Of a stretch of DNA of 64,000 bases, positions 2,536 to 47,151 are shown piece after piece. Within the stretch, counting starts at the first letter, position 1. Every line of letters begins with the position of its first letter. The translations under genes were made by a program, and so were the position numbers. Source of the stretch: a virus (Duplodnaviria > Caudoviricetes); IMG/VR virus record IMGVR_UViG_2871003000_000003, positions 64,001 to 128,000 of that record; one strand, 5' to 3'. Below the pieces are notes generated by a model. That model saw only the letters and a list, made by a program, of their open reading frames with translations, searched no databases and had not been told where the DNA came from.

Positions 2536-3999
2536 TTATCCAGCAAGTTCATATTTATGTCTCAAGAATTCACCAATATCATTTACCATGTATGTATAAT
2601 TTTCTTTTTGATCTTTAATATATGTAGAATTTCTGTTAAAGAAACTTACCATCCACTCCGGAATTTCTAAATCTATGTTTGTTTCAAAGCTGTACGCAAC
2701 AACAGCAAGTAAAGAATTCATGTTTTCAGGTTCAAGAAGTTTCGATGAGTTATCAACCTCTACTGTCCAGTCATCTAACTGAATTTTATATAATTCGATG
2801 TCTTCATCAATCACATCTTCTTTAACATTTTCTTTGATAAATTCAAGAGCGTTCTGGTCTGAAGAAGCATTATCTATTACATTATTCTCTCCCACTTCGA
2901 CAAGACATTCTTCATCTTCTTTAATATGTAAATACTCTTTCATGAGAGCAGTTAAGATGTTAATTTTCTCTTTTAAAATAGCCTTACCTTTTGTATGACG
3001 ATCCTCATTTAATTTGTCAAATGTTACTCCATTTACATCTTTTTTATATAAAGACTTTTCAAATTCTTCTACAAAATCCTTAAACTTAATATCATCTAAT
3101 CCAAATTTAGCAAACTCTTTAAACACAGGGATCCAAACAATAACATTTTTTGGCACAAACACTTCTGTGAAATTATCTTTGCACACAGATTCAATCCTGC
3201 TAAAATATTCATTTACAGTATCAAAGTGTTCTTCCGTTGCGTTCTCATTTAGATATTTGCTCATGTTCTTTATTGCACTTTTCCAGTTATCAAAGAAAAA
3301 CGTTGTCATGACAGATTCACATACAAGTCTTTCTCTAATACCTTTCGATTGCTGCTTACCGGAACAAGACATACAATTTTTAAAGAATTTATTTTTCTCA
3401 GATATTGTCCTTATTTTTCTTGCATGTAAATCAATATAAGTAAATGCTTTCTGAGATGTATTCATTCCCAAATGATTGTTGTATCTTCTCACCAATTTAC
3501 TAATCTGTGACATCGTACAATGCTGATGTATTGTAATGTCAATCTGATAATCATCAAACATTTTTTTCAATTCTGGCGGTAACATTTCATATGTTTTTCT
3601 TCTCAAATCATATTCAACAGATTCCCAAATAACTTTTCCGTATTCATCTTTACAGATTTTATTATTTTCATCTTTCTTTTTTCTCTGATATTGGATAATC
3701 GGATCTTCTAAAGTAGCTGTAATTTTATAGTTTTCATGCTTAAATTTAACCAACGCAGAACTTCTTTGCATTCCATCAACAATGTATTGCTGCACAACGT
3801 CTTCGTCCAAATCTTCTTCTCCTAAGATAATTGGTGGAATATAATCATCAGTTAATACAGTTTTGATTAACTCATTCACCATTCCATTTTCCCAACAAAA
3901 CAGTCTTTGAACGTCCTGGTTATCACTGATATCCTCTTCTACTATTTCCTCCAGGTATGATTCCAGAGATAAAGTCTTTTTTCTGATTTTCTTTGCCAT
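2536..3999 (-). CDS. DUF262/ParB-like NTPase domain protein
   Basis: VQR..W, IPPIIL, IVDGMQR and RRYN motifs. Confidence 0.75.
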   Translation of the reverse strand: MAKKIRKKTLSLESYLEEIVEEDISDNQDVQRLFCWENGMVNELIKTVLTDDYIPPIILGEEDLDEDVVQQYIVDGMQRSSALVKFKHENYKITATLEDPIIQYQRKKKDENNKICKDEYGKVIWESVEYDLRRKTYEMLPPELKKMFDDYQIDITIHQHCTMSQISKLVRRYNNHLGMNTSQKAFTYIDLHARKIRTISEKNKFFKNCMSCSGKQQSKGIRERLVCESVMTTFFFDNWKSAIKNMSKYLNENATEEHFDTVNEYFSRIESVCKDNFTEVFVPKNVIVWIPVFKEFAKFGLDDIKFKDFVEEFEKSLYKKDVNGVTFDKLNEDRHTKGKAILKEKINILTALMKEYLHIKEDEECLVEVGENNVIDNASSDQNALEFIKENVKEDVIDEDIELYKIQLDDWTVEVDNSSKLLEPENMNSLLAVVAYSFETNIDLEIPEWMVSFFNRNSTYIKDQKENYTYMVNDIGEFLRHKYELAG

Positions 4000-5713: not shown

Positions 5714-6022
5714 ATTTTTTGTTCTTTTCTGTTCTTCTGTATCCGGGAAAGGATCATGAACTAATATTGTACTCATAGTTCCGATAGGTTTTATGTTCAT
5801 CAAATCTAATTGTTTTTCAGAAAACACTCTTAGCTGGTTTAAAAAGTCATCACAAATTTTTGCTATTGTTTCAGATCGCTCGATAATATCCTTGCATTCC
5901 TGAAAAGTTTTTCTTTCAAAACCTACCACCTCATTATTTTCAAGGTCTTGTTCTGCAACTAAAACTTTTTTCCCTTTACAGTGCTTAACAGCTTCTTCAA
6001 TGTCCATCAATACATATCTCAT
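5666..6022 (-). CDS. hypothetical protein coupled to mazF (possible antitoxin)
   Basis: ATGA overlap with the mazF stop. Confidence 0.55.
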   Translation of the reverse strand: MRYVLMDIEEAVKHCKGKKVLVAEQDLENNEVVGFERKTFQECKDIIERSETIAKICDDFLNQLRVFSEKQLDLMNIKPIGTMSTILVHDPFPDTEEQKRTKNRTNVLSTIDKNKCSC

Positions 6023-6390
6023 GCCACATCATCTCCCCACATAAAATTTGCGTCACATGCAATCTTTATTGCACGTTTATCGTCCATAGATGTTATCTTT
6101 CCAAGGTATTTTTCTATTCTTAATTCTGAAATATTTCTTATGCATTCGCACAAAACAATAGAATCTTTTACCAACCCTGTACCTCTTCCCTTTTTGATAA
6201 GAGTATGCGTAGGTTGGTTTATCTTTTTTAATTTTGTACTAAATGGTATAACGATGGTTGTTGCAGCGAAATGATTTCCTATATCATTCTGTACAATAAT
6301 TGCTGGTCTTTTCCCGCCTTGTTCACTTCCTATAGTGTTATCTCCAAAGTCAACCATTACAATATCAAATTTTTCAAATTTAATTTTCAT
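6019..6390 (-). CDS. PemK/MazF family endoribonuclease
   Basis: GSEQGGKRPAIIVQNDIGN, DSIVLCE.IR.IS..RI motifs. Confidence 0.9.
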   Translation of the reverse strand: MKIKFEKFDIVMVDFGDNTIGSEQGGKRPAIIVQNDIGNHFAATTIVIPFSTKLKKINQPTHTLIKKGRGTGLVKDSIVLCECIRNISELRIEKYLGKITSMDDKRAIKIACDANFMWGDDVA

Positions 6391-6563
6391 AATTACGCAT
6401 CCTCCTTTCTCCTAATCTATGTACTTCTCTCTTTCGATATCATAAGTATATACTCTTTACAGTATATTGTCAAGAGTATATTCAATAAAATATATTTATT
6501 TTTTAAAGAATATATGCTAAACTATATACTGTAAACAATATATAACGAACAGGTGGTGAATAC

Positions 6564-6830
6564 ATGCGCTTAGATATTAAAGATCTGGTAGATAAAAAAT
6601 TTCAGAATAAAAATCAATTTGCAAAAGCGATCGGGGTCGGGTATCCTGCGGCATGTAAACTTTACGATGGAGATACAAGCAAAATAAATTTTGACACACT
6701 AGAAAGAATATGTATCGCACTAGAATGTACTCCAACTGATTTATTCAAATCTGAGGATCCAGCGTTAAATAGACTTCTTTTATATTATTGCAAGTTACAT
6801 GAATCCAATGAAAAAGACGATACAGAATAA
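6564..6830 (+). CDS. Cro/CI-type HTH regulator
   Basis: FAKAIGVGYPAACKLY, INFDTLERICIALECTPTDL; divergent from mazF. Confidence 0.85.
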   Translation: MRLDIKDLVDKKFQNKNQFAKAIGVGYPAACKLYDGDTSKINFDTLERICIALECTPTDLFKSEDPALNRLLLYYCKLHESNEKDDTE

Positions 6831-7255
6831 GTATCGTCTTACATATATTTATTACATCTTTATTATTTCTTTAGCTTTTCTAGCTGCTATATCCCAGTTT
6901 ACTTCTATCCCGGAATCAATGCTATACCATGTATCTTGGCTTTCACTGTACTGCAACACATTCCAACACCATAAGTTTGACTTTTCTTTGTGCGGTTCTA
7001 AAACTACTTTTCTCATAACATTTACACCTCCCAGATGAAAGTTAAATTCTATTTATATTTATATGTTGATAATTTCGACATCCTCCTTTGGAACGGTATG
7101 CCAATCGTCATAGAAGTAAATATATAATAAATCTGGATTAGGATGTACTCTATACGCAACATATTTATTTACTTCTAAAATCCCAAATCTTTTAAGTAAA
7201 CATTTCTTTACCATACAAAATCACCAACCTTTTTATATTTTTAAATAATTTTTAT

Positions 7256-7606
7256 CTAACATTCTTCCATATATGGATTATCTTTTAACCTATAATCACA
7301 TCCTTTTGCTAACAAAAATTGTTCCCATTTCAATTTATCTTCGCTTGTTAAAGAAAAATCCACTTCCAAACCACAATCATAAACTGTTGGCATCTTTAAA
7401 GTGATTATATCCTCTATCTCAAATTCTCCACCTTCGCCATCATCCCAACCACCAGTTGTCATTTCTACTGTGATTTTATTCCATTCTTTGTCTCTTTCAA
7501 TGTTTACAATCTTAGTAGGATTGAACATTTCAGTAAGAATAAATTTAATTTCTTCATCTGTTAAACTAAGAAATTCTCTGTATTGTAACATATAATTACA
7601 CCTCAC
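7256..7606 (-). CDS. hypothetical protein
   Basis: ORF track; RBS GAGGTG. Confidence 0.65.
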   Translation of the reverse strand: MRCNYMLQYREFLSLTDEEIKFILTEMFNPTKIVNIERDKEWNKITVEMTTGGWDDGEGGEFEIEDIITLKMPTVYDCGLEVDFSLTSEDKLKWEQFLLAKGCDYRLKDNPYMEEC

Positions 7607-7611
7607 GGATT

Positions 7612-8025
7612 TTAATCTTTTGAATAATATGGTTTATTTATAACATAAGAACCACATGGAACATATGTATTTTTGCAAACTTTACATACATTAACAGAGC
7701 ATTTACCGTTTTCGTCCATATAAGCACACTCATGACTAACTACTTCTTGTACAGCTCTTATAATATCTTTATCTTCTTCTTTTTCTCCCAAAGAATACCA
7801 ATCAATGCCGGAAATAGATTTTTTATCCAATTTCCATTCATTACCAATAAGTTCTACTGTCGCAGTATAAAAACCACAACCACAATCATTGTCTTCATAC
7901 TGTTCATTATCATAAAATCCAAACAATATAATTCTCTTTATGCTTGTATTCGGATATTTTAATACATCGTTGATATAATACCATTTACCATTCACTTTAA
8001 ATCCTGAACCATTAACCGATAACAA
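7612..8025 (-). CDS. hypothetical protein, Cys-rich C-terminus
   Basis: TTG start after GAGGAGG. Confidence 0.65.
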   Translation of the reverse strand: MLSVNGSGFKVNGKWYYINDVLKYPNTSIKRIILFGFYDNEQYEDNDCGCGFYTATVELIGNEWKLDKKSISGIDWYSLGEKEEDKDIIRAVQEVVSHECAYMDENGKCSVNVCKVCKNTYVPCGSYVINKPYYSKD

Positions 8026-8060
8026 TATATTACCTCCTCATTTGATATAAAACTTAGAAT

Positions 8061-8309
8061 CTATCTAGAAAAATCTATTAAACTTCCACGATCTTTAATA
8101 GGTTCTCCATTAGCTGCTAAAACAGGCTCTATGCTATCTGCTAAATCAAGCCAACTGACGCTTACATGTTTCTGTTCTACATATCCATCTTCTTCCTCAA
8201 ATTCAACATCACACTCATCATCAGATTCCCACGCATAACCAATAAATTTCCCATACTGTTTTAAATTTCTATGATAAACTCTATCTCCTGTTTTAAATTT
8301 CTTTTCCAT
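8061..8309 (-). CDS. hypothetical SH3-like small protein
   Basis: FKTGDRVYH motif; RBS. Confidence 0.6.
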   Translation of the reverse strand: MEKKFKTGDRVYHRNLKQYGKFIGYAWESDDECDVEFEEEDGYVEQKHVSVSWLDLADSIEPVLAANGEPIKDRGSLIDFSR

Positions 8310-8313
8310 AATA

Positions 8314-8583
8314 TCACCTCATATCATCTATTAAAACGCCTAATCTATCATATGCTTTAAAATATCTATGTGCAATTTCATTAAACATATCAGACTGACA
8401 TATTGCAATAGCAGCCTTTTCTCCAACTTCTGTTTCATATTCTATTGCTAACTCAGAAAATAGTTCCTTTTTCTCTTCTCGTTTGCATTGCACTCTTTTA
8501 TAACTTTCATAGCATTCCTTCAATTTATCGTTAGGAATGCCAATAAATAAATTTCTTCTCATAAAACGCTCCAATCTGACCAA
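8314..8583 (-). CDS. hypothetical protein
   Basis: ORF in tandem array. Confidence 0.55.
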   Translation of the reverse strand: MVRLERFMRRNLFIGIPNDKLKECYESYKRVQCKREEKKELFSELAIEYETEVGEKAAIAICQSDMFNEIAHRYFKAYDRLGVLIDDMR

Positions 8584-8585
8584 CT

Positions 8586-8837
8586 TTAGTCATTTAATTT
8601 GTCCCAATATTTATCAGAAGTTATGTCTTCATCAATCAATAACATATTTCCATTGTTATCAAAATGATTACACATTAATATATCATTTAATATATGAAGC
8701 ACACTAATTTCCCAATTTTTCCCGTTATCAAATTTATCAAGTTCTAATTTATGTGCGTATTGTTCAAATACTTCTTTTATATCTTTATCGGACATTTGTG
8801 ACAATTGATTTCCAATATGTTTATTTGTAGTATCCAA
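8586..8837 (-). CDS. hypothetical protein
   Basis: TTG start after GAGGTG. Confidence 0.55.
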   Translation of the reverse strand: MDTTNKHIGNQLSQMSDKDIKEVFEQYAHKLELDKFDNGKNWEISVLHILNDILMCNHFDNNGNMLLIDEDITSDKYWDKLND

Positions 8838-8865
8838 TTATAACACCTCTCAATCCAAATAAAAC

Positions 8866-9102
8866 CTACATTTCTTTTACTTTAATAAACATCTTTTTCG
8901 GGAGTATTTTATTACAGTTTATACACCTTCGTCTTCTACTACAAAATTCTGTAATATCTTCAGACGCTCCACATGGCTCATTATTGTAATTAAAAAACAA
9001 ATCTCTAATTACTCTTTCTGTTATATAGTATCCCTTTTCTGAACCACAAAACGGGCATATTTTTTGTTCCTTCATAATTCCCCTTCGCTTGAAATCAATC
9101 AT
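8866..9102 (-). CDS. zinc-ribbon small protein
   Basis: CPFCG...CINC motifs. Confidence 0.6.
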   Translation of the reverse strand: MIDFKRRGIMKEQKICPFCGSEKGYYITERVIRDLFFNYNNEPCGASEDITEFCSRRRRCINCNKILPKKMFIKVKEM

Positions 9103-10189
9103 TTATTCTCTTCAAAATTCCATACCGTTTCTTGAACATCCCAACATATTCTGGAAAATATTCAAACCAATCATAATTCACTTCTTTGATTTGATTCAAT
9201 CCAATTTTTCTTACAGCTTCTAATGCAGCGTCTTTCTGGTTGATTCTTTTCCCAAAGCAAGTCTGGCAATTAGAACCTTCTATTGTTTCATACGAGTTAA
9301 ATGTCTTATTGAAATCCATCAATGGATGAAGAGATACTGGTTTATTATTCACATTATTTACCAGAACTCCCCAGTTTCCCCAGTGACGATCAGTGTTTCC
9401 CACAAGGTAATCAATAATGTTCATCATGTAGTAATCATGCTTATCAAGTGCTAAAATATATTTTCGGATATTTCGGTCATGATTTTGCGAATACACTTCA
9501 AATGCTTCCATAGACACAATGGAAAAGTCCTTTGATGTGATATTTTCACTTATAGTTACCGGTTCTTCAGCAAATACACTTCTGTTGTATATGACCTGCT
9601 TTACATCAAAACACTGACAAATTTTACTTGATAGAAGTTCCTTCTCAACAACTTCTATTCCTCCGTCTTTCAACAGAGAAAATCCTTTTTCTGTCCGTTT
9701 CCAGGCTTTTGGGAAAACACCATTTGTAGACAAATCTTTTGCCAGATCTTCATTATTGACTGTATATTGTTTTCCACGTAGGGCAATATCAATAAATATG
9801 TTTTCCAAGTGGTTGTCATACAAATTCACTTCAGAAAATGTTATCTTTTCACCTTTATTTCTTACCCAGAAAACATCTGTCAATGATGTACACCTATATG
9901 ATAACGCCACTTTTGCTCTATCCTTGTCCGTTACAGCCTGATTCATTCCTATACTGTTCAAAATTTCTTTAGCGTATTTTCTATCCAATGTGAGAACTCT
10001 TGTTGCACACCAATAATTGAAATTTGTAATATTATTAACAAGAGTATCAACATCTTCTTCTTCTTCAAGATATAGGTTATACGGCATAAAACTTTTGTAA
10101 TACACCTTACATCTTCCAGAAGAATCAATTCTTGCAACTCTTCTATCTTTATGCATAATTTCAAAAATATCGCTGTTCATATTATACAT
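9095..10189 (-). CDS. HipA/CtkA-like Ser/Thr kinase
   Basis: STNGVFPKAW, LLK, IDYLVGNTDRHWGNWG and DFN motifs. Confidence 0.8.
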   Translation of the reverse strand: MYNMNSDIFEIMHKDRRVARIDSSGRCKVYYKSFMPYNLYLEEEEDVDTLVNNITNFNYWCATRVLTLDRKYAKEILNSIGMNQAVTDKDRAKVALSYRCTSLTDVFWVRNKGEKITFSEVNLYDNHLENIFIDIALRGKQYTVNNEDLAKDLSTNGVFPKAWKRTEKGFSLLKDGGIEVVEKELLSSKICQCFDVKQVIYNRSVFAEEPVTISENITSKDFSIVSMEAFEVYSQNHDRNIRKYILALDKHDYYMMNIIDYLVGNTDRHWGNWGVLVNNVNNKPVSLHPLMDFNKTFNSYETIEGSNCQTCFGKRINQKDAALEAVRKIGLNQIKEVNYDWFEYFPEYVGMFKKRYGILKRIND

Positions 10190-10579
10190 TCCTTTTCAAA
10201 ATTTCCGTTACCTGCTGCGTAGTAATTCCATATATTTTTGCAACTTTTTTCTTGTCTTTGTATTTTTCATATTCTTCTATAATGTCATTCTCTGTCCAGT
10301 TCTGGTGAACTACCCACGAGCTAAAGCTAATGGGATTGCGAGCCTAATTAATTCAACCGGCTCATTCATAAAGTTTTCCATCATGGTTTCTCCAATTTTC
10401 CAATTTTCCAAAATACTCTCTACGGAATCATACGGACAAAACAACTTCCCGCTTCTCAACATAATTACATCAACCTTTTTCTTATCTCTGTAGATTTTCG
10501 TAAGTTCTGTGCTTATCTCATATGTTTGTCCTGTGCGAAACCCCATACTTCCGTCTCTACCAATATATTTTCCTCTCAA
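10182..10579 (-). pseudogene. gene interrupted by a 47-bp mini-IS; restored product ends in an HTH-like segment
   Basis: Removing 10305-10351 joins ...EPVE to QNWTENDIIEEYEKYKDKKKVAKIYGITTQQVTEILKRNV* in frame. Confidence 0.7.
10305..10351 (-). mobile_element. 47-bp non-autonomous IS200/IS605-type mini-element, copy 1
   Basis: 45 bp identical to 27895-27939; internal hairpin; preceded by TTGAA and ends TTCAC on the minus strand. Confidence 0.75.
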
Positions 10580-10614
10580 TATCGTACCTCCATTACATAT
10601 TATTTTAACACATA

Positions 10615-11610
10615 TTACAAATCAAGTACAGCATCTGCTATAGTAGATTCATCCATGTGTACATAGTATCTTGCTGCTGTTTCCAAATTCTTGTGCCTTA
10701 ATTGTCTTTGAACAAGAACAATATCTTTTGTTTCTTCATACAATTTACTTCCAACCCAATGTCTTAACATATGTGGGTAAATTTCACCTTCCGAATATAA
10801 ATTAAAAAACCCTGTAATTGCACCTTTACTTAATCTGTTATTTTCATTTGATAAAAACAATGCATTATCTTTAATTTTTCTCTCTGTTACGAAAAAAGTT
10901 CTAATTTTCAAATACTCCTCAATATTCATTCTAGCCTGTTCAGACATATAAACTTTATCATATTCTTGTATATTTCCCTTTCCAAGAATCATCATATACG
11001 GTCTTTTTTCTTCGTGTAGATGTAAATCGGAAATATCCATATTTATTAGTTCTTCTGAACGAATACCACTTCCCTTTATAAGTTGAACGATGGCAATATT
11101 TCTAATAATATTAAATTCATTTTTATTTCCATCTGTGATATTTACTAAGAATTTTTCCACTTGCTCATCTGTTGGGATTTCTACTTCTTTATATCTTTTT
11201 TCAGATTTATATAGATTGCCAGGTATATGTGAAATCACATTATCATCGACATATTTATTTTGTCGTAAATAATTCCAAAAAGCACTGAATACATTCTTCT
11301 TTGTATTGATAGAATCCAGTGAATTTGTTCTTCCTAAAAATCCATTTTTTAATTCGTTAAGATATTTAATAAGATTATTACTAGTAATAATCTGTATATC
11401 TGTTTCATTGATTTCTGCTATGCTTTGTTTATTTATATATTTATTATTGATCATCCAATTAAGCATATCTCTAATATATATCCAATTAACTCTCTTTGTA
11501 GCCGCTGATTTATATCTATCAAAAAAATCTGATATAAAATCAGGAATATCTTTTAATTCTTTTGCAAGTTTTTGTTCTATTTTTCTTTGTTTTTCAATTT
11601 TATAACACAT
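10615..11610 (-). CDS. tyrosine recombinase
   Basis: SGIRSEEL, GKGN, PHMLRH, LRH and YYVH catalytic motifs. Confidence 0.92.
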   Translation of the reverse strand: MCYKIEKQRKIEQKLAKELKDIPDFISDFFDRYKSAATKRVNWIYIRDMLNWMINNKYINKQSIAEINETDIQIITSNNLIKYLNELKNGFLGRTNSLDSINTKKNVFSAFWNYLRQNKYVDDNVISHIPGNLYKSEKRYKEVEIPTDEQVEKFLVNITDGNKNEFNIIRNIAIVQLIKGSGIRSEELINMDISDLHLHEEKRPYMMILGKGNIQEYDKVYMSEQARMNIEEYLKIRTFFVTERKIKDNALFLSNENNRLSKGAITGFFNLYSEGEIYPHMLRHWVGSKLYEETKDIVLVQRQLRHKNLETAARYYVHMDESTIADAVLDL

Positions 11611-11621
11611 ATAATATTCTC

Positions 11622-11867
11622 CTAAAATCCCAATGCTTCTGCAATATCTATTTTCTTTTGTAAATATTCTAATGCAGACAATCGTTCTGCAAATTCTTTT
11701 GATTCTTTTCCATGAAAATAACTAATCTCCCACAATTCTCCATCATCTGTTCTATAATATTTCTGTTCTTGTGGCTTATTATTCCGAGTAAGGTATTCAT
11801 ATACATTTCGACAATACAATTTTTCATATTCTCCTAATAGAATATCTTCTCTTTTAATCTCCTTCAC
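11622..11867 (-). CDS. hypothetical protein
   Basis: ORF with RBS. Confidence 0.55.
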   Translation of the reverse strand: MKEIKREDILLGEYEKLYCRNVYEYLTRNNKPQEQKYYRTDDGELWEISYFHGKESKEFAERLSALEYLQKKIDIAEALGF

Positions 11868-12452
11868 ATTTAATACCTTCTTTCTTTAAAATCGTGTTCC
11901 ATGTAATAAACCTTCGGCTTTCATTTCTGTAGCGAATTCAAAATCAACGTTGCAAATGTTGTAACTGTTATACATGGAGTTCTCCATATTCTTTATTCCC
12001 CTTTTTACTCTTTTACTGTGTTCTTTGAACAAATATTCCATGCTATCCTTTTCTCTTCTCATAATATTCCTCCTGTTTTTGCAATAAAAAAACAATCAGA
12101 TATCCCCGATTGTTTTAATTGATTAGCTTTCTTTTCTTATATACACTACAAAAGTCACCAGGACAATTTCTGATGACTTCTAACTATACATACACTATCT
12201 TCCTTTTTTTGCTTTCTTCCATTCATATTCCCATCGTTCATCTTCTGACATTTTACTTGTCTTATGATCTTCCGCCAATGTAAACAAACCTCCAATAACA
12301 AGAACAATCAACCCAAAAATAATTCCACCCATAATGTTTACCTCCAAATATTTTTTACTTTAAACTATCACTGAGATTTTCCAAAAACGCACATAGCATC
12401 AATAAAAATATTCCTCCAATTAACGCTCCCATATGCATATCCCCACCCTTCA

Positions 12453-13004
12453 TTATCCATTATATATGTAAGCACACTTATGTGCAACACCACTCTGCGT
12501 TCTTCCTAACTCTTTTGCAACTTCTCTATAAGACATTCCTCTACGCAACATGGATTTTGCATAGTTTATTTCCATATCTGTCCAGTATTTTCCTTTGTTT
12601 GGTCTGTCATATGAGAATTTTTCACACCTTACCCACGCCGGTTCCAAAGCCAATGTCATACAATTATACCTAGACCAGTTGATAATATCCTTATGCTGTT
12701 CAGCCCATTTCCAAAAATTTTCAAGATCAATCATATATTTTGTGCAGCACGAACATTTAAATTTCCGACATGGAAGATCATATTGATTTATCCACTTCAT
12801 GACTACCTTATGAGTAACATTGAAACACTCAGCAAGTTTATTCACGCTTAAAACATCATGCACCTTGCTCAAGCCCATATCCAAAGCCTTTTTTACAACT
12901 GCACGTTCTGTTCTATTAAGTCTTTTTGCTGTAATTGACACAGCCTGATTCAAATATTTCGATTCCAAATACCTAATCTCTCTGTCTGTCCATCTTTGAG
13001 CCAT
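12453..13004 (-). CDS. multi-HTH DNA-binding protein
   Basis: Two WT..EI..L / A..L.RT repeats flanking a central HTH. Confidence 0.7.
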   Translation of the reverse strand: MAQRWTDREIRYLESKYLNQAVSITAKRLNRTERAVVKKALDMGLSKVHDVLSVNKLAECFNVTHKVVMKWINQYDLPCRKFKCSCCTKYMIDLENFWKWAEQHKDIINWSRYNCMTLALEPAWVRCEKFSYDRPNKGKYWTDMEINYAKSMLRRGMSYREVAKELGRTQSGVAHKCAYIYNG

Positions 13005-13006
13005 AT

Positions 13007-13315
13007 TTACACAATCTCCCTAGGAATATAATCTGCAAGGTAATCTTCTTGTCTCTCTTTGAAACGTATTTTTAAATATCCAACATAGTGGAATTTAATT
13101 CCATTCTCTTCGAGCAATCCCTTAAAAATATCTCCAATAGGTTCACATACATCTGTACATGAATTAAACTTTCTAGTTGCTTCTCCGGCAAGATTCTCCA
13201 CCTCTCTCTGTCTATCTAATGGAATCTGATATACTTCTGGTCTTGCTCCGTAACCTTCTTTGTATTCATTGTTATAGGTTCCATCAAAATCCAATACAAA
13301 TAATGTCCACATCAT
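13007..13315 (-). CDS. hypothetical protein
   Basis: ORF with AAGGAG RBS. Confidence 0.6.
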   Translation of the reverse strand: MMWTLFVLDFDGTYNNEYKEGYGARPEVYQIPLDRQREVENLAGEATRKFNSCTDVCEPIGDIFKGLLEENGIKFHYVGYLKIRFKERQEDYLADYIPREIV

Positions 13316-13603
13316 AATTTCTTACTCCTTTATTTCCTGCTGCCAATTCTTTTAATATTGTCATTTCTCTCTCAAAAGAAATGTGAATTTCATTACTACT
13401 CATTGTTCTTTTCTATCATGGGGAATATCCAGCCTGTTTTATTATTGGGAAACAAAACGTCATAATTGATTTTATGTAATTGAAACTCTGTTCCACATCT
13501 TTCACAGGCAAAAATTTTTCCGTCATACATTCCAATAATCCCACCACATTTGCAATTAATGTGACTATATCTTTTCATGTTTACCTCAATTATCATTCTG
13601 GGT

Positions 13604-13903
13604 CTATCCAATATTTACATACCACCATCCAGTATATCTATCCACTTCATTATTTCTTTCGTCTTCTTCCGGATCGTAATATCCTGTATTTATTTCGACT
13701 TCTTCACCTTGTGTTCTATATAATGTCGTAAGCATATCTGCAACTGTGTTTGCTGCACTCTCTGTTCTTACTAGAATTTCAGAACCTCCATCTGTCCAAA
13801 TTTCTCCTTCAGAATAATCTCTTAGTCTTTCTGTAATTAGATCAATCCAATTCAATTTATCCATACCTTCCCATCCTTTCCACACAAGAAATGCGACTTT
13901 CAT
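13604..13903 (-). CDS. hypothetical protein (true start likely MDKLNW)
   Basis: ORF track; internal RBS. Confidence 0.55.
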   Translation of the reverse strand: MKVAFLVWKGWEGMDKLNWIDLITERLRDYSEGEIWTDGGSEILVRTESAANTVADMLTTLYRTQGEEVEINTGYYDPEEDERNNEVDRYTGWWYVNIG

Positions 13904-14253
13904 TGTGTCATTCGTTTAATCTTTTGCCAATCAATCTGTTCAAATAATGTCTGATTGAACTCCGTCAATTCTTCTGCTCTTTCGCATTGCTCACAGTAAT
14001 CATCAATATTATCAAAATAATTATCTTCTGTTTCCAAATACCAATCTTCATAGTCTGCAATCTCTGGATTGTAAACTTGCAAACCACCAGTATTGCAATA
14101 ATCTGGTTTAATATTATTCTGCAACTGGAAAGCGTCATATGCAGCAAGAATATCCATTACTTTCTTTCCTTCTTCTACACTCTTTACCGGAATGTAAAAT
14201 GCGTCACTTAATCCTACTTGCGGAATCCACCACACTCTTAATTTTTCTTTCAT
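13900..14253 (-). CDS. P22 gp17-like anti-exclusion protein
   Basis: KLRVWWIPQV...SVEEG..MD.LA.YDAFQ..NNIKPDYCN..GL matches the recalled P22 gp17 family pattern. Confidence 0.7.
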   Translation of the reverse strand: MKEKLRVWWIPQVGLSDAFYIPVKSVEEGKKVMDILAAYDAFQLQNNIKPDYCNTGGLQVYNPEIADYEDWYLETEDNYFDNIDDYCEQCERAEELTEFNQTLFEQIDWQKIKRMTQ

Positions 14254-14270
14254 AGTTTTTATTTCCTTTC

Positions 14271-14570
14271 CTACGCTTCATAATCAAATTCTTCAAACCC
14301 ACCATTATCTTCCACATAAACCTTGTACCCACTTATCCATGGGTCTTTACAATCTCTAAAATTGTTTGGATGATATGTGTTATTTTTATCATCTTCTATC
14401 TCACATTCATAGTGTGCAAATATCATATTAATAAGATTTTCCATTGATGTTTTTGGTTCATATCCATGTTCTCTGATCCACGCTGCCATTGTGTCATAAT
14501 CACACCATTTTTCTTCTGGATATGTAGAATAATCTTCTTCCTCATGCCATCTTCCATATGTATCTACCAT
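14271..14570 (-). CDS. hypothetical acidic protein
   Basis: ORF with GAGGTG RBS. Confidence 0.6.
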   Translation of the reverse strand: MVDTYGRWHEEEDYSTYPEEKWCDYDTMAAWIREHGYEPKTSMENLINMIFAHYECEIEDDKNNTYHPNNFRDCKDPWISGYKVYVEDNGGFEEFDYEA

Positions 14571-14819
14571 AGTTATTTACACCTCTTTCCATAAGAAATA
14601 CGAGTTTCAAAGAAAATCCATCAACTGATTTTCTAACATTTCTTCCAATTCATCATCTACACTACAATTATGGTCACATTCTGGATTGCAGCAAACACAC
14701 CGTACTTCTGGATAATGTTTGCATTGTCCTGTTTTATTAATATTCTTTCTATAACTTTTTCCATCTTTTTCGATTATTTGAAAAGCCATATTAAAACCAC
14801 CTTAGATAAATTTCCGATT

Positions 14820-15107
14820 CTATTCTTCTATAATCAATTTCTTTCCGCATATCGGACAAAATTTTACTTTATACATATCAATTCCAAAATCATATCCACA
14901 ACATGTAGCCACTCCATCAATCAAGTATGACTCATTTATTTCTTCTACTTCACACCATGAATCCGTACAATTATATGGTGACTCCCTACGTCCTTTCATA
15001 ATATCATCTTTTACAATTTCTTCCGCTTCTTCTTTACTATTTGCTTCTACTTCATATGTTTTGCCATATGTTTCATAATAATCTACAATATATTTTGCCA
15101 TAATCAT
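14820..15107 (-). CDS. DpnD/PcfM-like protein with C-terminal zinc ribbon
   Basis: KY.V...ET...YEVEANSKEEAEE; FCPICG. Confidence 0.6.
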   Translation of the reverse strand: MIMAKYIVDYYETYGKTYEVEANSKEEAEEIVKDDIMKGRRESPYNCTDSWCEVEEINESYLIDGVATCCGYDFGIDMYKVKFCPICGKKLIIEE

Positions 15108-15113
15108 TTTCTC

Positions 15114-15509
15114 CTACAATCCCATCAAATCTTTTACAACACTTACACCATAACTTTCCTCAAACCAATCACAGATTGACGTTCTATGCCATCCTGCTGC
15201 GAATCCATTCCACTCTTCCTCAATACATTCTGTATTAGGGTTCATCGGAACATTGCCAAAATCTAACCATAAATCCTTAATATATTGTGCGCGTCTATAC
15301 TCATAACTATCATTCATACCACGATCAACAATACATGCTAAATCATCATCTGTGATCAAGAATTTCCGTTCTGTGCAATAGTCCATTATCGCATTGTATT
15401 CCTTGTCACAAAATTCTGTATCATCTTCAATTTGATCAATTTTCAGTTCTTTTAGATATTCTCTTAATGACATACTATTTTCCCTCTTTCCAATGTTCCA
15501 TATCTTCAT
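15114..15509 (-). CDS. hypothetical protein
   Basis: ORF in array. Confidence 0.55.
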   Translation of the reverse strand: MKIWNIGKRENSMSLREYLKELKIDQIEDDTEFCDKEYNAIMDYCTERKFLITDDDLACIVDRGMNDSYEYRRAQYIKDLWLDFGNVPMNPNTECIEEEWNGFAAGWHRTSICDWFEESYGVSVVKDLMGL

Positions 15510-15726
15510 TTTTCAATGCGATCATTTCCAACATTTGCAGCGTACTGAAACATTCATTTTGTTTTAAAATTTCCAGTTCTTCTGTGATACACTTTACTTC
15601 TTCATCTTTGTATTCTAAAGAGTCCGCATAATCCATATCTAAAGACAGATTATATAATATTTTCGCAATTTTCTGTAAATCCATAATATACCATCCTTCC
15701 TCTTATGAAAGCATTCTTTCGTTCTG

Positions 15727-16023
15727 TTAAATAAATTCAATTTCCCATATAGCATTTTCACGAAAATACTGTTTGCAAAGTCCGTTTTCAAATTTCCAGT
15801 CGGATGCTTTTCCATATTTAATCCAACTTCCTTTCCCATTGTTGGCTAATGTAATTTTGCTATCTGGTTTTTCATCTTCGATACTGTAAAACCCGTTTGT
15901 CTGTACTACATTCGGCTTTCTAATCTGCCCCTCATATTCTGATCTGATATAGTGTTTTCTAATAATAAATTTACGTCCCTCTTTGATTACTCTTTTTAAC
16001 TGTGCTAAATTTTTAATTTCCAT
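15727..16023 (-). CDS. hypothetical protein
   Basis: ORF with GGAGG RBS. Confidence 0.6.
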   Translation of the reverse strand: MEIKNLAQLKRVIKEGRKFIIRKHYIRSEYEGQIRKPNVVQTNGFYSIEDEKPDSKITLANNGKGSWIKYGKASDWKFENGLCKQYFRENAIWEIEFI

Positions 16024-16278
16024 GTTTATTTCCTCCCAATAACTAATCCCTGTTACAATAATCTAAAAAAGCGCCTATTGTTTCTTCTGCTTCGCACCTA
16101 GTCAAATATCTTCGCTTTTTACTTTTCTTTCTATGTAATGGTAATCCACACATCTTGCGTTCATTATTTCTTAATAACATTTTGTCCGTTTTTTGTTTCT
16201 TCCTGGTATTTATGTTCATACTCATTTCACCTCTTAAAATCGTGCTTTCATATGCTCTCTATATAATAGATATATTAT

Positions 16279-16584
16279 TTATAAAATTTCAAAATGCATT
16301 CCCTCGAAAAGTAAAACACATCCATTTTCATCGTTTGTCATCCATGTTTTTGTTCTTCCATCTTTATTACTTACACCTGTGTACTGTTCTTTTTTCCACT
16401 CTTCTTTTCTGAAAATATAATACTTGTGAATTCCTGTTTCACATTCTGGGTATTTTCCCTCTAAATGTAAGGCAGCTTTTTTTGCTTCTATTTCTGTTTC
16501 ATGTATGGATTCTTCAATCCTTTTCCATCCACATTCTTTATCTTTCATACAGGCATATGCCTTAAATTTAATAATCATATTCAA
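16279..16584 (-). CDS. hypothetical protein
   Basis: TTG start after GAGGAGG. Confidence 0.55.
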   Translation of the reverse strand: MNMIIKFKAYACMKDKECGWKRIEESIHETEIEAKKAALHLEGKYPECETGIHKYYIFRKEEWKKEQYTGVSNKDGRTKTWMTNDENGCVLLFEGMHFEIL

Positions 16585-16615
16585 AACCTCCTCTTGAAAT
16601 TATCTTTTCATGTAA

Positions 16616-16870
16616 TTATTTTAAAGAAATTTTCCACCCTATTCCCTTTTCTTCAATCTTAAATCCATGTTTTTCAAAGATATTCTTGACATCACCACAA
16701 ATTGATACTGTGCTATGTGTAATATCTCTAATAATAGAGTTGTAACAATGTACTAATTCTTCTGCCGAATATGGTACGAGATTATATTTTTTTAATTTCC
16801 CATTGTCATAAACTTCTTCCAATATTCTTCTTATTTTTAATAATTTATTCTGTTCTGTTTTAGTAAACAT
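16616..16870 (-). CDS. hypothetical protein
   Basis: ORF with GGAGG RBS. Confidence 0.6.
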   Translation of the reverse strand: MFTKTEQNKLLKIRRILEEVYDNGKLKKYNLVPYSAEELVHCYNSIIRDITHSTVSICGDVKNIFEKHGFKIEEKGIGWKISLK

Positions 16871-16915
16871 AACTATTTCCTCCCGATAAAATCATTATTT
16901 GTTTCCATAACATAC

Positions 16916-16936
16916 GGAACAGCAAAAAGCTGTTCC
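16916..16936. other. perfect 8-bp hairpin downstream of VR2 (candidate DGR homing hairpin)
   Basis: GGAACAGC-AAAAA-GCTGTTCC, 21 bp past the target-2 stop. Confidence 0.55.
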
Positions 16937-28380: not shown

Positions 28381-29904
28381 CTATGCTTTATGTCCACCAA
28401 TTTGATTATTCCTATCTATTGCAGTAGCTCCTTCTTGTAAACTCATACCTTTTAAAATTGCATTTTTCCCAAATTTTTTCTTGATATCCAAGATAGCTTT
28501 CTGAATATCTTTTTCTTTTTTAAGTTGTTCCTGGTCTACTGCATCTTCCTTTTCAGAAATCATATCAAATAAATTAAGCTGTTCATATCTATCCTGTTTC
28601 GCTTCCTTTTCGCTGATCACATGATTTGCAGACATATTGATTCTTCTGACAAGTAAATTTTCGTCTACAATTCTACTGAATAAATCAAGCACAGCTCTTA
28701 CAATCACGCTAGTAGAAGACGTATAACTATCTAAATTTACTGTTCCATGAGCATGTTTTGGAATTTTTCTCCCATATTGATCAAAAGAGAACTCTCCCTT
28801 ATACTTACTCATTCTGGAAGAATCTAATAGATTTTCTCTATCGTAGCCAATCGTTAATACAATCTGATCCGTTACAAGATTCTTACTAACCAAATCTAAG
28901 ACCAGCATCTCAGTCATTTCACGCACAATAATTTTCGTTTTATCAAAATCAGTTCCACAGTGTAAAACCTGTCCGCTTCCAATACTATTGCTCTCCGGCT
29001 TATATGCTTTTATATCTGAAATTGTAACCGGTTCATAACCCCATGCATGGTCAATCAAAAGCTCTGTATTTTTACCAAACATTCTACGCAGCAAGTCTTC
29101 ATTATAATAATCTGACTCTTTTCCAAGAGAACATCTTGCGATATCGCCCATTGTATATAGTCCTACAGATTCTAATTTTTTAATATACCCTCTACCTACT
29201 CGCCAAAAATCAGTCAATGGTTTATGTTCCCATAGCTTCTCTCGATATGACTTTTCATCCAATTCTGCAATTCTCACACCATTTTCATCTGCAGGTATAT
29301 GTTTGGCAACAATATCCATTGCTATTTTACAAAGATACAAATTAGTTCCTATTCCTGCGGTTGCAGTAATTCCAGTTGTATTCAAGACATCCAATATCAT
29401 CTTCTGTGCAAGTTCTTTTGCGGATAATCCATACGTATTCAAATAAGAAGTCACATCCATAAATACTTCATCAATAGAATATACATGGATATCTTCAGGA
29501 GCAACATATTTCAAATAGATATTATAAATCCTTGTGCTATATTTCATATAAAAAGCCATACGTGGTGGAGCCACAATATAATCAACTTTTAAATCCGGAT
29601 TTGTATCAAGAATTTTTTTACTATATGACTGTCCGGGAAACTCATTCTTTTTCAATCGATATAATCTTGTTGCATTAATTTCTTGCACCCGCTGCACAAC
29701 CTCAAATAATCTTGGTCTTCCAGATATACCATATGATTTCAAAGACGGCGTTACTGCAAGACAAATTGTTTTCTCTGTACGACTGTTGTCTGCAACAACT
29801 AAATTCGTATCCATTGGATCCAAGCCACGTTCTATACACTCCACTGACGCGTAAAAACTTTTTAGATCAATCGCAATATATGACTTATTATTCATGCAGC
29901 ACAC
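28381..29904 (-). CDS. Y-family DNA polymerase (UmuC/UvrX-like)
   Basis: IDLKSFYASVE, YSIDE and C-terminal IGGH motifs. Confidence 0.95.
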   Translation of the reverse strand: MCCMNNKSYIAIDLKSFYASVECIERGLDPMDTNLVVADNSRTEKTICLAVTPSLKSYGISGRPRLFEVVQRVQEINATRLYRLKKNEFPGQSYSKKILDTNPDLKVDYIVAPPRMAFYMKYSTRIYNIYLKYVAPEDIHVYSIDEVFMDVTSYLNTYGLSAKELAQKMILDVLNTTGITATAGIGTNLYLCKIAMDIVAKHIPADENGVRIAELDEKSYREKLWEHKPLTDFWRVGRGYIKKLESVGLYTMGDIARCSLGKESDYYNEDLLRRMFGKNTELLIDHAWGYEPVTISDIKAYKPESNSIGSGQVLHCGTDFDKTKIIVREMTEMLVLDLVSKNLVTDQIVLTIGYDRENLLDSSRMSKYKGEFSFDQYGRKIPKHAHGTVNLDSYTSSTSVIVRAVLDLFSRIVDENLLVRRINMSANHVISEKEAKQDRYEQLNLFDMISEKEDAVDQEQLKKEKDIQKAILDIKKKFGKNAILKGMSLQEGATAIDRNNQIGGHKA

Positions 29905-32572: not shown

Positions 32573-34450
32573 ATGAATTTTAATAAACAACAAGAAGAAA
32601 CTATTAATACAATAGAAGGAAACGTGGCGGTTATTGCCACAGCAGGTTCCGGTAAAACAACTGTTCTTACCCATAGAATTAAAAAAATGGTTGAAGAACA
32701 TAATATATTACCATCTTCTATCCTGGCAATTACTTTTAGCAAAAAAGCAAAAGAAAATATAAACGAAAAACTAATGGAACTTAATATATCGAATGTATCT
32801 GTAGAGACTTTTCATTCATTTGCTTTGAAGATTATCTCCTCTGTGTATGGAATCAAAAAATTTAAAATATGGACAACACCATGGGAAAAAGAAAAAACAA
32901 TAAAATGGATTTGTAGTGACTCTTTATTACTTTGCGATTCTGATAATGTCCCATACAACGAAATTACATCGTTTATTGCGTTGCAGAAAAATAACATGAA
33001 AACCCCAAATGATGATTTAATTTACACTCCGGATCCCCCATTTAAAGAAGAGGATATGAAACAAATATATAAAACTTATGAAGAGTATAAAGAAATCAAT
33101 TCACTTATTGAGTTTGATGATTTTTTGAACATGGCAAATAAAATTTTTGATACTGATTATTATACTTTAGAAAAGTATCGAAATATTTTTCAGTATATAT
33201 TAGTTGATGAATTTCAGGATATTTCAATTTCTCAAGCATTACTTTTAAGAAAATTAAACACAAAAAACACAATGATCGTCGGAGATCCTCTTCAGGCTAT
33301 TTATTCATTTAGAGGTGGTGATAGCAGATTTATTCTAAATTTTGATACTGATTATAAAGATGTAAAAGTTATTAATCTAAATACAAATTATAGATGTAGC
33401 AAAGATATTGTATTTACAGCAAATAAACTTGCGTTAAGTATTCCTGATTCTCAACACAAAAATTATGTAGAGAGTATTTCAAATAAAGAAAATTTTCAAA
33501 TTCCTGAGTTAAGACATTTCCCTGATGATTATGAAGAATGTTTATGGGTTGCATCAAAAATAGGAGAATTAAAATTTAAAGGATACGATTACAACGACAT
33601 TGCCATCCTCGCCAGAACAAATGCTCAATTACAAAAACTAGAGTCAACGCTGCATGATGAAGATATAGCATTTGAAATTGTTGATGGTAAAACTTTTACA
33701 GAATTACCAGAGATCAAATTGATAATTTCTTACTTTAAACTTGCGTTAAACACAAATGATAATGAATCGTTTTCTTATCTATACAATAAACCAAATCGAT
33801 GGTTAGATAAAAAATTTTTAAAAGAAGTAACAGATAACAGTTTTAAAAGAAATATATCATTATACAATTCAATGTTCACGATTGACAGGAGAAATTGGAG
33901 ATTCAAAAAAGGTATCGATGAAATCATTGAAGTAATAAATTATTTACAAAACAATCAGAATTCCAACATTTCAGATTTGGTAAGATTTTTGAGAAACAGA
34001 TTAGACATTGATAAATTTGTTACAAAAGGAAAGCAATCAGATGATGGAAGTTATATTGAACAAATCGACAACCTTAACAGTTTTGAAAATATTTGTTCCA
34101 AATACTCTTCCATTAAAGAATTTGTTTCATACATAGATGAGTTAAATACAGAAATGGAGAATAAAGATAATGATAAAGTCAAATTACTTACAATTCATAA
34201 GTCAAAAGGTATGGAATATCCTGTCGTGTTTATCATTGGATGCAATGAAGAAATCCTGCCACACTATAAGAATGAAAATGTTGATGATGAACGTAGGTTA
34301 TTCTATGTCGCAATTACAAGAGCCGAAAAAGAATTATATCTATCATATGTTGATTTATATAATGGTCAAACAAAATTGATAAGCTCTTTTATTAAAGATG
34401 TTGAAAATACAATTAAAATTATAAAAAACGAAAAAATAAGTGGTGAATAA
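32573..34450 (+). CDS. UvrD/PcrA-like SF1 helicase
   Basis: AGSGKT, DEFQD, GDPLQAIY.FRG, NYR, TIHKSKGME and ERRLFYVAITRA motifs. Confidence 0.97.
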   Translation: MNFNKQQEETINTIEGNVAVIATAGSGKTTVLTHRIKKMVEEHNILPSSILAITFSKKAKENINEKLMELNISNVSVETFHSFALKIISSVYGIKKFKIWTTPWEKEKTIKWICSDSLLLCDSDNVPYNEITSFIALQKNNMKTPNDDLIYTPDPPFKEEDMKQIYKTYEEYKEINSLIEFDDFLNMANKIFDTDYYTLEKYRNIFQYILVDEFQDISISQALLLRKLNTKNTMIVGDPLQAIYSFRGGDSRFILNFDTDYKDVKVINLNTNYRCSKDIVFTANKLALSIPDSQHKNYVESISNKENFQIPELRHFPDDYEECLWVASKIGELKFKGYDYNDIAILARTNAQLQKLESTLHDEDIAFEIVDGKTFTELPEIKLIISYFKLALNTNDNESFSYLYNKPNRWLDKKFLKEVTDNSFKRNISLYNSMFTIDRRNWRFKKGIDEIIEVINYLQNNQNSNISDLVRFLRNRLDIDKFVTKGKQSDDGSYIEQIDNLNSFENICSKYSSIKEFVSYIDELNTEMENKDNDKVKLLTIHKSKGMEYPVVFIIGCNEEILPHYKNENVDDERRLFYVAITRAEKELYLSYVDLYNGQTKLISSFIKDVENTIKIIKNEKISGE

Positions 34451-38841: not shown

Positions 38842-38913
38842 AGCCCCATCGCCAAGCGGTAAGGCACAGGACTTTGACTCCTGCATTCAGTAGTTCGAAT
38901 CTACTTGGGGCTG
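38842..38913 (+). tRNA. tRNA-Gln(TTG)
   Basis: AGCCCCA/TGGGGCT acceptor; CAGGA-CTTTGAC-TCCTG; TTCGAAT T-loop. Confidence 0.92.
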
Positions 38914-39097
38914 CTATCATCCGAAGTGTTGCGCTGACCGTCAATCAGTGGCGCATAAAAACCTATCCCAGTATAAATCCAGGTGACACTGGCTTATATG
39001 AAGATACGCTCTAGGTTTACTACGTTTTATATAACTATTCACATAACAATTATTTTGTCGTCCTTGTGGATGGGTGTTTTGGACGAGCAAACAATAA

Positions 39098-41584: not shown

Positions 41585-42784
41585 GTGGACGATATAGTAC
41601 ATAACTATAAAAGATTTGATGGTGAAAGTGATGATGAACTCATCCTGAGAATCTGTAATGATAAAGAAAATATCGGTACATGGAATGATGTTGCTGCAGT
41701 TCTAAACTCTCTTCTTGACTGTAACTACACTGAATCGGCATATAGAAAGAAAGTACAGTATTTCCGAAAGGTTCTTGATGCTAATCAGTCTAAATTCACA
41801 GACGGTGCAGCACAATTAAAAGAACTAAAGGAAGAGCGTATTCTTTTAGAGAAAGAACGTGTCAAAACTCGTGATGAACGAAATGAGTATCGTAGATTGA
41901 TTCGTGAAGAAGCACGTAAGGAATCTTATAAAGAACAGATTTTAAGATCCATTTCAGAATATCACGGACAACCATTAGATTATGATAAAAGAAAACAGTT
42001 TAATGGAATTTTAAAATCAGATAATGATTTAGTAATTTCTGTAACAGATATTCATGCAGGAATTGAAATTGATAACTGGTTTAATAAATACAATACAGAA
42101 GTTATGTATGATAGATTTAGACAGTACCTGGATAAAATTTTTGAAGTCTATTTACGGCACGGTTCTGAAAATATCTATGTAATTATAAGTGAGTTGGTCT
42201 CAGGATTGATTCACAACTCACTTCGGATTGAAAGTAATCAAAATCTAATTGAGCAATTCTTATCCGTATCGGATTGTATTTCACAATTTTTATCTGAACT
42301 TAGTTATAAATTTAATGAAGTTCATGTTTATGTTTGTCCTGGAAATCATTCTAGGTTACATGCAAAAAAGGAAGAATCTTTAAAAGGTGAAAATATGGAC
42401 TGTCTTGCTATTCCATTTTTGCAAGCCAAATTGCAGAACTTTAAGAATATCGAATTTCACGAAAATAAAATTGATGAATCAATTGCAATGTTTTCTGTTA
42501 GAGGAACAAAAATTTTTGGAGTCCATGGAGACAAAGATGACCCTAAAACGGTTGTGCAGAAACTATCGCTTATGACACAAATACGTCCAAATATTTTATA
42601 TATGGGTCATCGTCATGTAAATGCGATGTCTACTGTTTATAATGTGAAAATTTTACAATCAGGTTGTATTTCTGGAACAGATAACTATTGCTTGGATAAC
42701 CGATTGCAAAATAAACCAGAACAATTAATTTCAGTTATTAATAATGATGGATTAGATTGTGTGTACGATGTTAGGTTTCACTAG
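41585..42784 (+). CDS. calcineurin-like metallophosphoesterase
   Basis: DIH, GNH, HGD and GHRH motifs. Confidence 0.85.
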   Translation: MDDIVHNYKRFDGESDDELILRICNDKENIGTWNDVAAVLNSLLDCNYTESAYRKKVQYFRKVLDANQSKFTDGAAQLKELKEERILLEKERVKTRDERNEYRRLIREEARKESYKEQILRSISEYHGQPLDYDKRKQFNGILKSDNDLVISVTDIHAGIEIDNWFNKYNTEVMYDRFRQYLDKIFEVYLRHGSENIYVIISELVSGLIHNSLRIESNQNLIEQFLSVSDCISQFLSELSYKFNEVHVYVCPGNHSRLHAKKEESLKGENMDCLAIPFLQAKLQNFKNIEFHENKIDESIAMFSVRGTKIFGVHGDKDDPKTVVQKLSLMTQIRPNILYMGHRHVNAMSTVYNVKILQSGCISGTDNYCLDNRLQNKPEQLISVINNDGLDCVYDVRFH

Positions 42785-45936: not shown

Positions 45937-45970
45937 TGGAGAGCTGTGCTGCTCTCCTATTTTTGTATTT

Positions 45971-46042
45971 GGCTCCATGGTCAAGAGGCTAAGACATCGC
46001 CCCTTCACGGAGGTAACACTGGTTCAATTCCAGTTGGAGTCA
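45971..46042 (+). tRNA. tRNA-Glu(TTC), atypical
   Basis: GGCTCCA/TGGAGTC acceptor; loop CCTTCAC; one anticodon-stem mismatch. Confidence 0.75.
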
Positions 46043-46119
46043 TTATTATATTCCGGCTTTCAAAAGAAATGCCGGTTTCATATCGGCAGAAAATAGAAAA
46101 AAGAAAGCGAGGAAAAATA

Positions 46120-47080: not shown

Positions 47081-47151
47081 GCTTGGATAGTTTAAAGGTA
47101 AAACGATTGACTTGTAATCAATTGTTCCCAGTTCAAATCTTGGTCTGAGCT
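47081..47151 (+). tRNA. tRNA-Thr(TGT)
   Basis: ATTGA-CTTGTAA-TCAAT; GCTTGGA/TCTGAGC acceptor. Confidence 0.8.

Follow-up and report, generated by a model that had tools for sequence, protein, structure and literature searches.

What do short palindromic sites do when they punctuate the accessory genes of a phage, each with a different centre, around a recombinase gene? The question is raised by a stretch of 64,000 nucleotides (the window) that covers bases 64001-128000 of a phage record made up of one contig, 165,772 bp long (~166 kb, ~32% G+C; IMG/VR record IMGVR_UViG_2871003000_000003), and in which inverted arms around 6-bp centres separate small genes on either side of a tyrosine recombinase gene. 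We compared this array with 61 related IMG/VR loci. Leaving the enzyme aside, the sites are very probably position-specific crossover points for gene exchange. The more specific proposal, that they are dif-like sites whose heterospecific centres allow in-register cassette exchange by the phage-encoded Xer-type recombinase, is one that we regard as evenly balanced between right and wrong.

The minus strand carries the genes throughout window positions 1-24,400, so that on the coding strand the sites read (A/T)TGAAA-N6-TTTC(A/T)(A/T). An earlier, sequence-only reading of this DNA had listed individual sites, which are present where it placed them, with the correction that the coding strand is the minus strand (ATGAAA-N6-TTTCWW). 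The significance of the motif, which that reading had left to statistics, is clear: the window holds 13 copies of GAAA-N6-TTTC where 4.5 are expected, none of 100 shuffles reached that count, and five of the copies are packed into 3.2 kb of the array. Across the genome there are 27 copies at spacing 6 compared with 8-17 at spacings 3-5 and 7-9, and in an unbiased scan of all 4-mer palindromic arms with spacers of 2-11 GAAA-N6 ranked first genome-wide. The related loci hold 291 copies at spacing 6 and 28-97 at other spacings. Since GAAA and TTTC are common words at 32% G+C, with about 40 background copies lying in genes, we had to consider that the motif might arise by chance or from the composition of an AT-rich genome; we give this next to no credence, as the enrichment is specific to one spacing and the centres and their order are conserved. 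Two in-gene copies outside the window, at genome positions 16602 and 149743, share the centre ACAAAT in direct orientation 133 kb apart, probably by chance. About 13 sites had been claimed between 7035 and 16903, of which six strong and three or four degenerate ones stand, giving a total of about ten. Nor is the array limited to that range, for sites also occur at 29.6-43.9 kb of the genome and all along one related genome.

The coding-strand consensus, W-T-GAAA-N6-TTTC-A-W, spans 18 bp and lies between an upstream stop codon and the next ribosome-binding site. As had been noticed from the sequence, placement before a ribosome-binding site, overlapping or abutting the previous stop, is the rule: 197 of 242 distinct sites are intergenic, although intergenic DNA makes up only 18%, and they mostly lie -2 to +10 nt from the stop and 13-29 nt before the start. 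In many cases a TGA or TAA belonging to the 5' arm itself serves as that stop. Both the arm variants (GAAA/TAAA/AAAA, 255/54/37; TTTC/TTTA/TTTT, 240/76/45) and the flanks are symmetric. One related genome also has good copies inside genes, far from ribosome-binding sites and starts, and in oppositely transcribed regions. The sites are not tied to translation starts.

What distinguishes one site from another is the centre. Among 238 site contexts we found 94 distinct 6-bp centres; the centres of the related loci form about 25-35 recurrent classes, and the order of the classes along the genome is conserved over about 45 loci. One phage group carries about 18 classes in series with the recombinase at the end, and the window's own group has 8-10 classes with the recombinase among them. 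Centre orientation is fixed (492 direct versus 13 inverted), and repeats of a class within a locus are rare (15 extra copies in 492). The genes around these fixed points vary widely: a single class can have as many as 16 gene families upstream of it and 17 downstream, and the contents between two given neighbouring classes come in up to 14-16 alternatives across phages, with single-gene occupants of 44-266 aa showing no cross-family BLASTP similarity at E < 0.01. Most families are tied to one class only (327 of 357 downstream and 313 of 354 upstream), a tie that, together with the conserved order, co-linear homologous exchange would also give. In one related locus, two sites with reverse-complementary centres stand 592 bp apart (L068:2976-2989 and 3568-3581, that is, G006 116975 and 117567) and flank the 5' part of a methyltransferase-like gene. 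We considered this pair as the ends of an invertible segment, but the second copy lies inside the DNA methyltransferase-like gene, and the pair is more likely due to chance.

The earlier reading had suggested checking whether gene gain and loss in relatives break at the sites, and the breakpoints do fall there, in a near-identical relative, in contigs with an identical recombinase and in junction statistics. Against L001, which is 99% identical, the window has two replaced segments (15727-16578 and 13396-13864) with homology breakpoints inside the arms. Specifically, and following the minus strand, L001 homology ends inside the 3' arm of the site ATGAAA-AGATAA-TTTCAA (16594-16611; 17 nt before a start codon, its centre present in 19 related loci) and begins again exactly at the G of GAAA in the site ACGAAA-GAATGC-TTTCAT (15705-15722, minus strand). 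The slot content at 15727-16578 on the same strand consists of three small ORFan genes (orphan open reading frames), in whose place L001 has three unrelated genes. In the second case homology stops after the TTT of the 3' arm in ATGAAA-GTCGCA-TTTCTT (13886-13903, minus strand) and restarts in the 5' arm of ATGAAA-TTCACA-TTTCTT (13376-13393, minus strand); the two small genes between these sites (13396-13864, minus strand) correspond to one unrelated gene in L001.

This behaviour extends beyond the closest pair. In four contigs with an identical recombinase protein, about half of the block ends lie no more than 3 nt from a site. Where two genomes have the upstream gene in common, the downstream neighbour is also the same at 10.5% of site junctions and at 40.8% of junctions elsewhere, so that synteny breaks are about four times more frequent at site junctions than at others. 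Between sites of the same class, similarity stops between -3 and +1 at the left edge of the core and between -1 and +3 at its right edge, limits that leave a conserved island of approximately AAA-N6-TTT plus the outer G/C. Even the 12-nt leader is replaced among same-class sites (55% identity) while the centre is kept. Thus the sites do mark off blocks of one to several accessory genes that can be exchanged, as had been suggested, with unrelated slot contents and breakpoints at the sites. The pattern of conserved centres and swapped genes stands regardless of the enzyme responsible, and by these comparisons it fits in-register exchange between co-linear genomes rather than capture.

The remaining sites and slots of the window array, all on the minus strand unless stated, show the same arrangement. 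The first site past the terminator-like hairpin that precedes the array (16916-16936) is degenerate, with two core mismatches and the centre TAATGA (16886-16903); in several relatives its class stands before the AGATAA class. The site ATGAAA-GCACGA-TTTTAA (16234-16251) has a TTTT 3' arm, and its centre recurs in 10 related loci with that arm every time. A four-gene slot (14607-15684) lies between the GAATGC site and the site TTGAAA-CTCGTA-TTTCTT (14593-14610), which holds the upstream stop in its 5' arm and whose centre is found in 13 loci before at least six downstream gene families. There is perhaps a degenerate site at 14805-14822 (no strand assigned), the centre of which matches a class conserved in relatives. 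Upstream of the GTCGCA site, whose arm supplies the TGA stop, is a 117-aa gene of the GP17 superinfection-exclusion family (13900-14253) that occupies at least four different slots among relatives; the cargo genes are otherwise ORFans for the most part. A second terminator-like hairpin (12089-12116) follows the densest part of the array, and these two hairpins bound 4.7 kb that contain no good sigma-70 promoter. Farther along, two more degenerate sites have the centre GATTGA (9089-9106), of a class found after the recombinase in relatives, and the form ATAGAA-TTTAAC-TTTCAT (7035-7052), whose centre class TTTAAC occurs in 24 related loci.

The gene at 10615-11610 (minus strand) encodes a tyrosine recombinase of 331 aa, as had been read from the sequence, and matches Pfam Phage_integrase (PF00589) with E 1e-21. 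Its best NCBIfam model is XerS, matched over the full length with E 2e-35 and scoring 122 bits against a cutoff of 267; it also falls below the curated cutoffs of the XerC, XerD and XerA models. The closest solved structure is XerH (E 7e-11), and in the alignment to XerH the motifs GIRS, GKG, HMLRH and RH and the tyrosine of RYY correspond to the catalytic residues (R..K..HxxR..H..Y). By these measures the enzyme is a relative of the XerS and XerH families and not a member of either. Roughly 700 homologues of the recombinase match at E <= 1e-10, and one homologue is indexed on contigs longer than 1 Mb. We found no close homologue in species-representative bacterial genomes, only XerS-annotated matches of about 27% identity among the PLSDB plasmids, and, among GenBank phages, no close relatives. 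Upstream of the recombinase is a conserved block (11622-13315, minus strand) that holds a 183-aa protein with two helix-turn-helix (HTH) regions (12453-13004). Just downstream, a 361-aa protein with a weak, kinase-like HipA_C match (window 9095-10180) is conserved in the window's phage group.

The presence of the recombinase goes with that of the sites. In both phage groups the array contains or ends with a member of this recombinase family, the two versions being only about 30% identical to each other. Genomes with the recombinase have site counts of 42 against 6 and 24 against 6, whereas in two complete relatives that lack it the counts stay at background (11 against 8, and 5 against 5). In addition, a lineage with a 37%-identical recombinase has sites of the form TCAAA-N6-TTTGA, with the same stop codon-to-ribosome-binding-site placement and seven found versus 0.09 expected. 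In the same lineage, a perfect TCAAA-N6-TTTGA copy lies within the recombinase gene itself (L079:10137-10152). Near more distant recombinase homologues we looked at CAAT-N6-ATTG, ACAC-N6-GTGT and CTTT-N6-AAAG, which were few or in genes and were set aside as noise.

The known sites of the Xer branch offer a direct comparison. The difH site consists of two palindromic blocks around a unique 6-bp centre, with inner arms TGAAAA-N6-TTTTCA, and reads ...ATGAAAA-CTGCAC-TTTTCAAA... in H. pylori and TTGAAAA-CTATAA-TTTTCAAA in Campylobacter; changing its G to C, or A4 to T4, abolishes recombination (PMC3325230). The arms of difSL, TTTCCGAAAA and TTTTCTTGAAA, end in GAAAA and TTTTC (PMC5357621). The XerH-difH structure shows base-specific reading confined to the inner 5 bp of each arm; the outer arm is held via the backbone and the centre is hardly contacted (PMC5241119). 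The phage site, TGAAA-N6-TTTCA, has the same profile of conservation, with four to six fixed arm bases, free outer flanks and a centre that is free as far as the protein is concerned. It resembles both systems in its arm letters and difH in its 6-bp centre, and on its inverted arms, central length and letters it qualifies as a candidate Xer/dif-type core site. The TCAAA lineage has C in place of G at the very arm position on which difH depends. The sequence-only reading had likened the sites to tyrosine-recombinase cores; their format is indeed of this kind, and the neighbouring enzyme is of the Xer branch, and the sites known for that branch have the same arms, from which we infer that it acts as recombinase here, binding and cutting the sites. 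There are also clear differences. XerH/difH of Helicobacter and Campylobacter and XerS/difSL of streptococci and lactococci use one site per chromosome for dimer resolution under FtsK, whereas the phage has tens of sites with different centres at gene junctions; its arms are one A:T pair shorter than the XerH and XerS sites, and its enzyme is below both family cutoffs.

We hypothesize that the sites are minimal dif-like cores, each with a 6-bp central region between the inverted arms (W)(T)GAAA and TTTC(A)(W), and that the phage's own single XerS/XerH-like recombinase would bind the arms and exchange strands where arm and centre meet. For enzymes of this type, strand exchange would need matching centres, a requirement with which the comparative data on this system agree. 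As each site of a genome has a different centre and the order is kept across relatives, a site would then recombine only with its same-position counterpart in a co-infecting or resident related genome. Two such crossovers would swap the intervening DNA with no need for flanking homology, and the outcome would be a conserved scaffold of addressed joints between which accessory genes are freely replaceable.

Several known systems share part of this design. Functionally closest is the engineered exchange of cassettes between heterospecific lox or FRT sites, which have 13-bp arms and 8-bp spacers. There, too, identical arms carry differing spacers, and exchange between equal spacers keeps register and prevents deletion within a genome; the difference is that lox/FRT exchange is man-made, while the spacer dependence of the phage sites is suggested by comparative data only. 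The closest arrangement is that of the pdif/dif modules of Acinetobacter plasmids, in which many Xer-type sites per replicon bound accessory modules that vary between relatives (PMC6449649, PMC13141974, PMC7399989, PMC11705084). In contrast to the phage array, with symmetric arms, one orientation, a conserved centre order and its own single recombinase, pdif sites have asymmetric XerC and XerD arms, alternate in orientation and are served by the host XerCD. The same format was found in phage SPbeta, where TAAAA-N6-TTTTA occurs 12 times in 50 kb versus 0.9 expected, with T as the outer arm base instead of the G seen here. Beside the TAAAA arms of SPbeta, GAAA is a second arm type and CAAA a third. 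The SPbeta annotation carries two features named 'palindrome' beside the integrase genes yopP and yopR (L087:37856-37871 and 42394-42411, corresponding to 77856-77871 and 82394-82411 of the record), and yomM, yopP and yopR are its tyrosine-recombinase genes. Our literature search found no paper that describes such arrays.

A number of observations weigh against the action of the phage recombinase at these sites. The proposed binding, cleavage and recombination rest on comparison of sequences, and the arms offer only 4-6 conserved base pairs. Contigs with 46%-, 43%-, 40%- and 33%-identical homologues have no array within 10 kb or less on each side, and YomM, YopP and YopR of SPbeta are not detectably similar to the window recombinase by BLASTP. 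Junctions without sites are mosaic too (59% differ), and where one gene family occurs in different slots, homology begins at the ribosome-binding site and not at the arm; general illegitimate or short-homology recombination must therefore be active as well. Moreover, a PemK toxin/HTH pair is found near the recombinase in many relatives, and several relatives are whole-length separate contigs in isolate assemblies, which together make a plasmid-type role in multimer resolution, or one in genome cyclisation, plausible. The PemK-type toxin and its divergent HTH gene stand a few kilobases from the recombinase at window 6019-6830 and in seven further loci (L063, L064, L072, L074, L077, L081 and L086), and GmrSD_N-like and DUF6551 genes are also nearby, in a neighbourhood that resembles plasmid maintenance or defence.

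These observations are the substance of the strongest rival explanation, which we consider unlikely though far from negligible: the sites would be crossover hot spots at which general or short-homology recombination, by a phage single-strand annealing protein or host RecA, acts over the 12-18 identical bases, while the arms serve otherwise, for example as an operator for a dimeric regulator of early or accessory genes, and the recombinase only resolves multimers, cyclises or integrates the genome. The high mosaicism of site-free junctions, the breaks at ribosome-binding sites in slot-to-slot moves, the plasmid-like link to a toxin-antitoxin pair and the lack of arrays beside some recombinase homologues would all follow. 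A precedent for regulatory motifs that mediate shuffling also exists in the promoter-early stem-loops (PeSLs) of T4-type phages, short repeated intergenic motifs that mark swapped small genes in plastic regions (PMC2839356, PMC4122927). PeSLs, however, combine a sigma-70 promoter with a terminator hairpin, resemble one another and rely on homology to recombine, whereas the phage sites lack both promoter and stable hairpin and have position-specific centres. Explaining common arms together with slot-specific centres in this way requires two unrelated functions, and 11-14 identical bases offer very little for homologous exchange to work on efficiently, although a slot can have up to 16 contents. 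The agreement of geometry and arm letters with the sites of the recombinase's own family, and the copies that one relative carries inside genes or far from starts, likewise speak against this rival.

If the sites were purely regulatory, as DNA operators ('stoperators') or as RNA translational operators or processing sites, they would coincide with breakpoints simply because both lie at gene boundaries. The stereotyped position from stop codon to ribosome-binding site and the location of the array between two terminators with no good sigma-70 promoter speak for such a role, but we judge it improbable, given that centres are kept per position while the surroundings, including the leader, are replaced, and that synteny breaks are so much commoner at sites than at other gene boundaries. 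An RNA hairpin or translational operator was rejected: outer positions pair no more than column composition predicts, with no arm-pair covariation beyond it, single-base variants show hardly any enrichment, and G.U-compatible ones show none and are not tolerated. For five window sites the folds were no better than those of shuffles (z -1.2 to +0.9), with the arms pairing together in the minimum-energy fold of only one. A sigma-70 promoter was likewise discarded, as the scan gave 89 matches versus 93 expected, none strong at the sites, and strong promoters only at 21.4-24.1 kb. The stoperators of cluster A mycobacteriophages repeat a single asymmetric 13-bp repressor site, always in the same orientation, and were set aside as a model because the phage site is symmetric with variable, position-specific centres. 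The spacing of catabolite-responsive (cre) and other known operators is also unlike that of the sites. Finally, the sequence-only reading had proposed an integron-like array, in which circular cassettes with a folded site are inserted successively by an integron-type integrase. The likeness is real, in that a tyrosine recombinase adjoins an array of short, cassette-like and mostly promoter-less genes with palindromic sites between them, and attC clusters have been reported in phages (PMC9892861). The analogy nevertheless did not hold up, and we consider this origin highly improbable: the IntI model TIGR02249 reaches 27 bits where its cutoff is 265, with a match restricted to residues 276-319, and the sites are 18 bp long in place of the 57-141 bp of a folded attC, with neither pairing covariation nor folds above shuffles. 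They also occupy fixed, ordered addresses over about 45 loci instead of being stacked at one attI, and the locus has no attI. With different centres throughout one genome, excision of a single cassette as a circle is not to be expected.

Elsewhere in the window are three tRNA genes, Gln-TTG (38842-38914), Glu-TTC (45970-46043) and Thr-TGT (47081-47151), as well as genes for a Y-family (ImpB/MucB) DNA polymerase and a UvrD-type helicase, at 28381-29904 and 32573-34450 in that order.

Mosaicism of phage genomes at gene boundaries is a long-standing question, usually explained either by rare illegitimate joints that selection has sieved or by a relaxed form of homologous recombination. The locus suggests a third, directly testable route, namely a dedicated site-specific system with an ordered, conserved scaffold of sites and replaceable cargo. 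More generally, and tentatively, since we hold this to be slightly less probable than not, large Firmicutes phages may possess a natural form of recombinase-mediated cassette exchange, in which a single phage-encoded Xer-type recombinase would act on tens of minimal dif-like sites with heterospecific 6-bp centres as addresses, and co-infecting relatives would swap accessory or anti-defence genes slot by slot with no need for homology. The arm letters would differ by lineage, with GAAA in this phage, CAAA in one relative and TAAAA in SPbeta-like phages. Cassette exchange would then be a widespread, evolvable and hitherto undescribed mechanism of phage mosaicism. Its confirmation would give the Xer family a multi-site, phage-borne member and would provide ready-made orthogonal site sets for genome engineering. 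It would also define the travelling units of superinfection-exclusion and probable anti-defence genes, and would explain the hyper-plastic early and accessory regions in a large group of gut and Bacillus-type phages.

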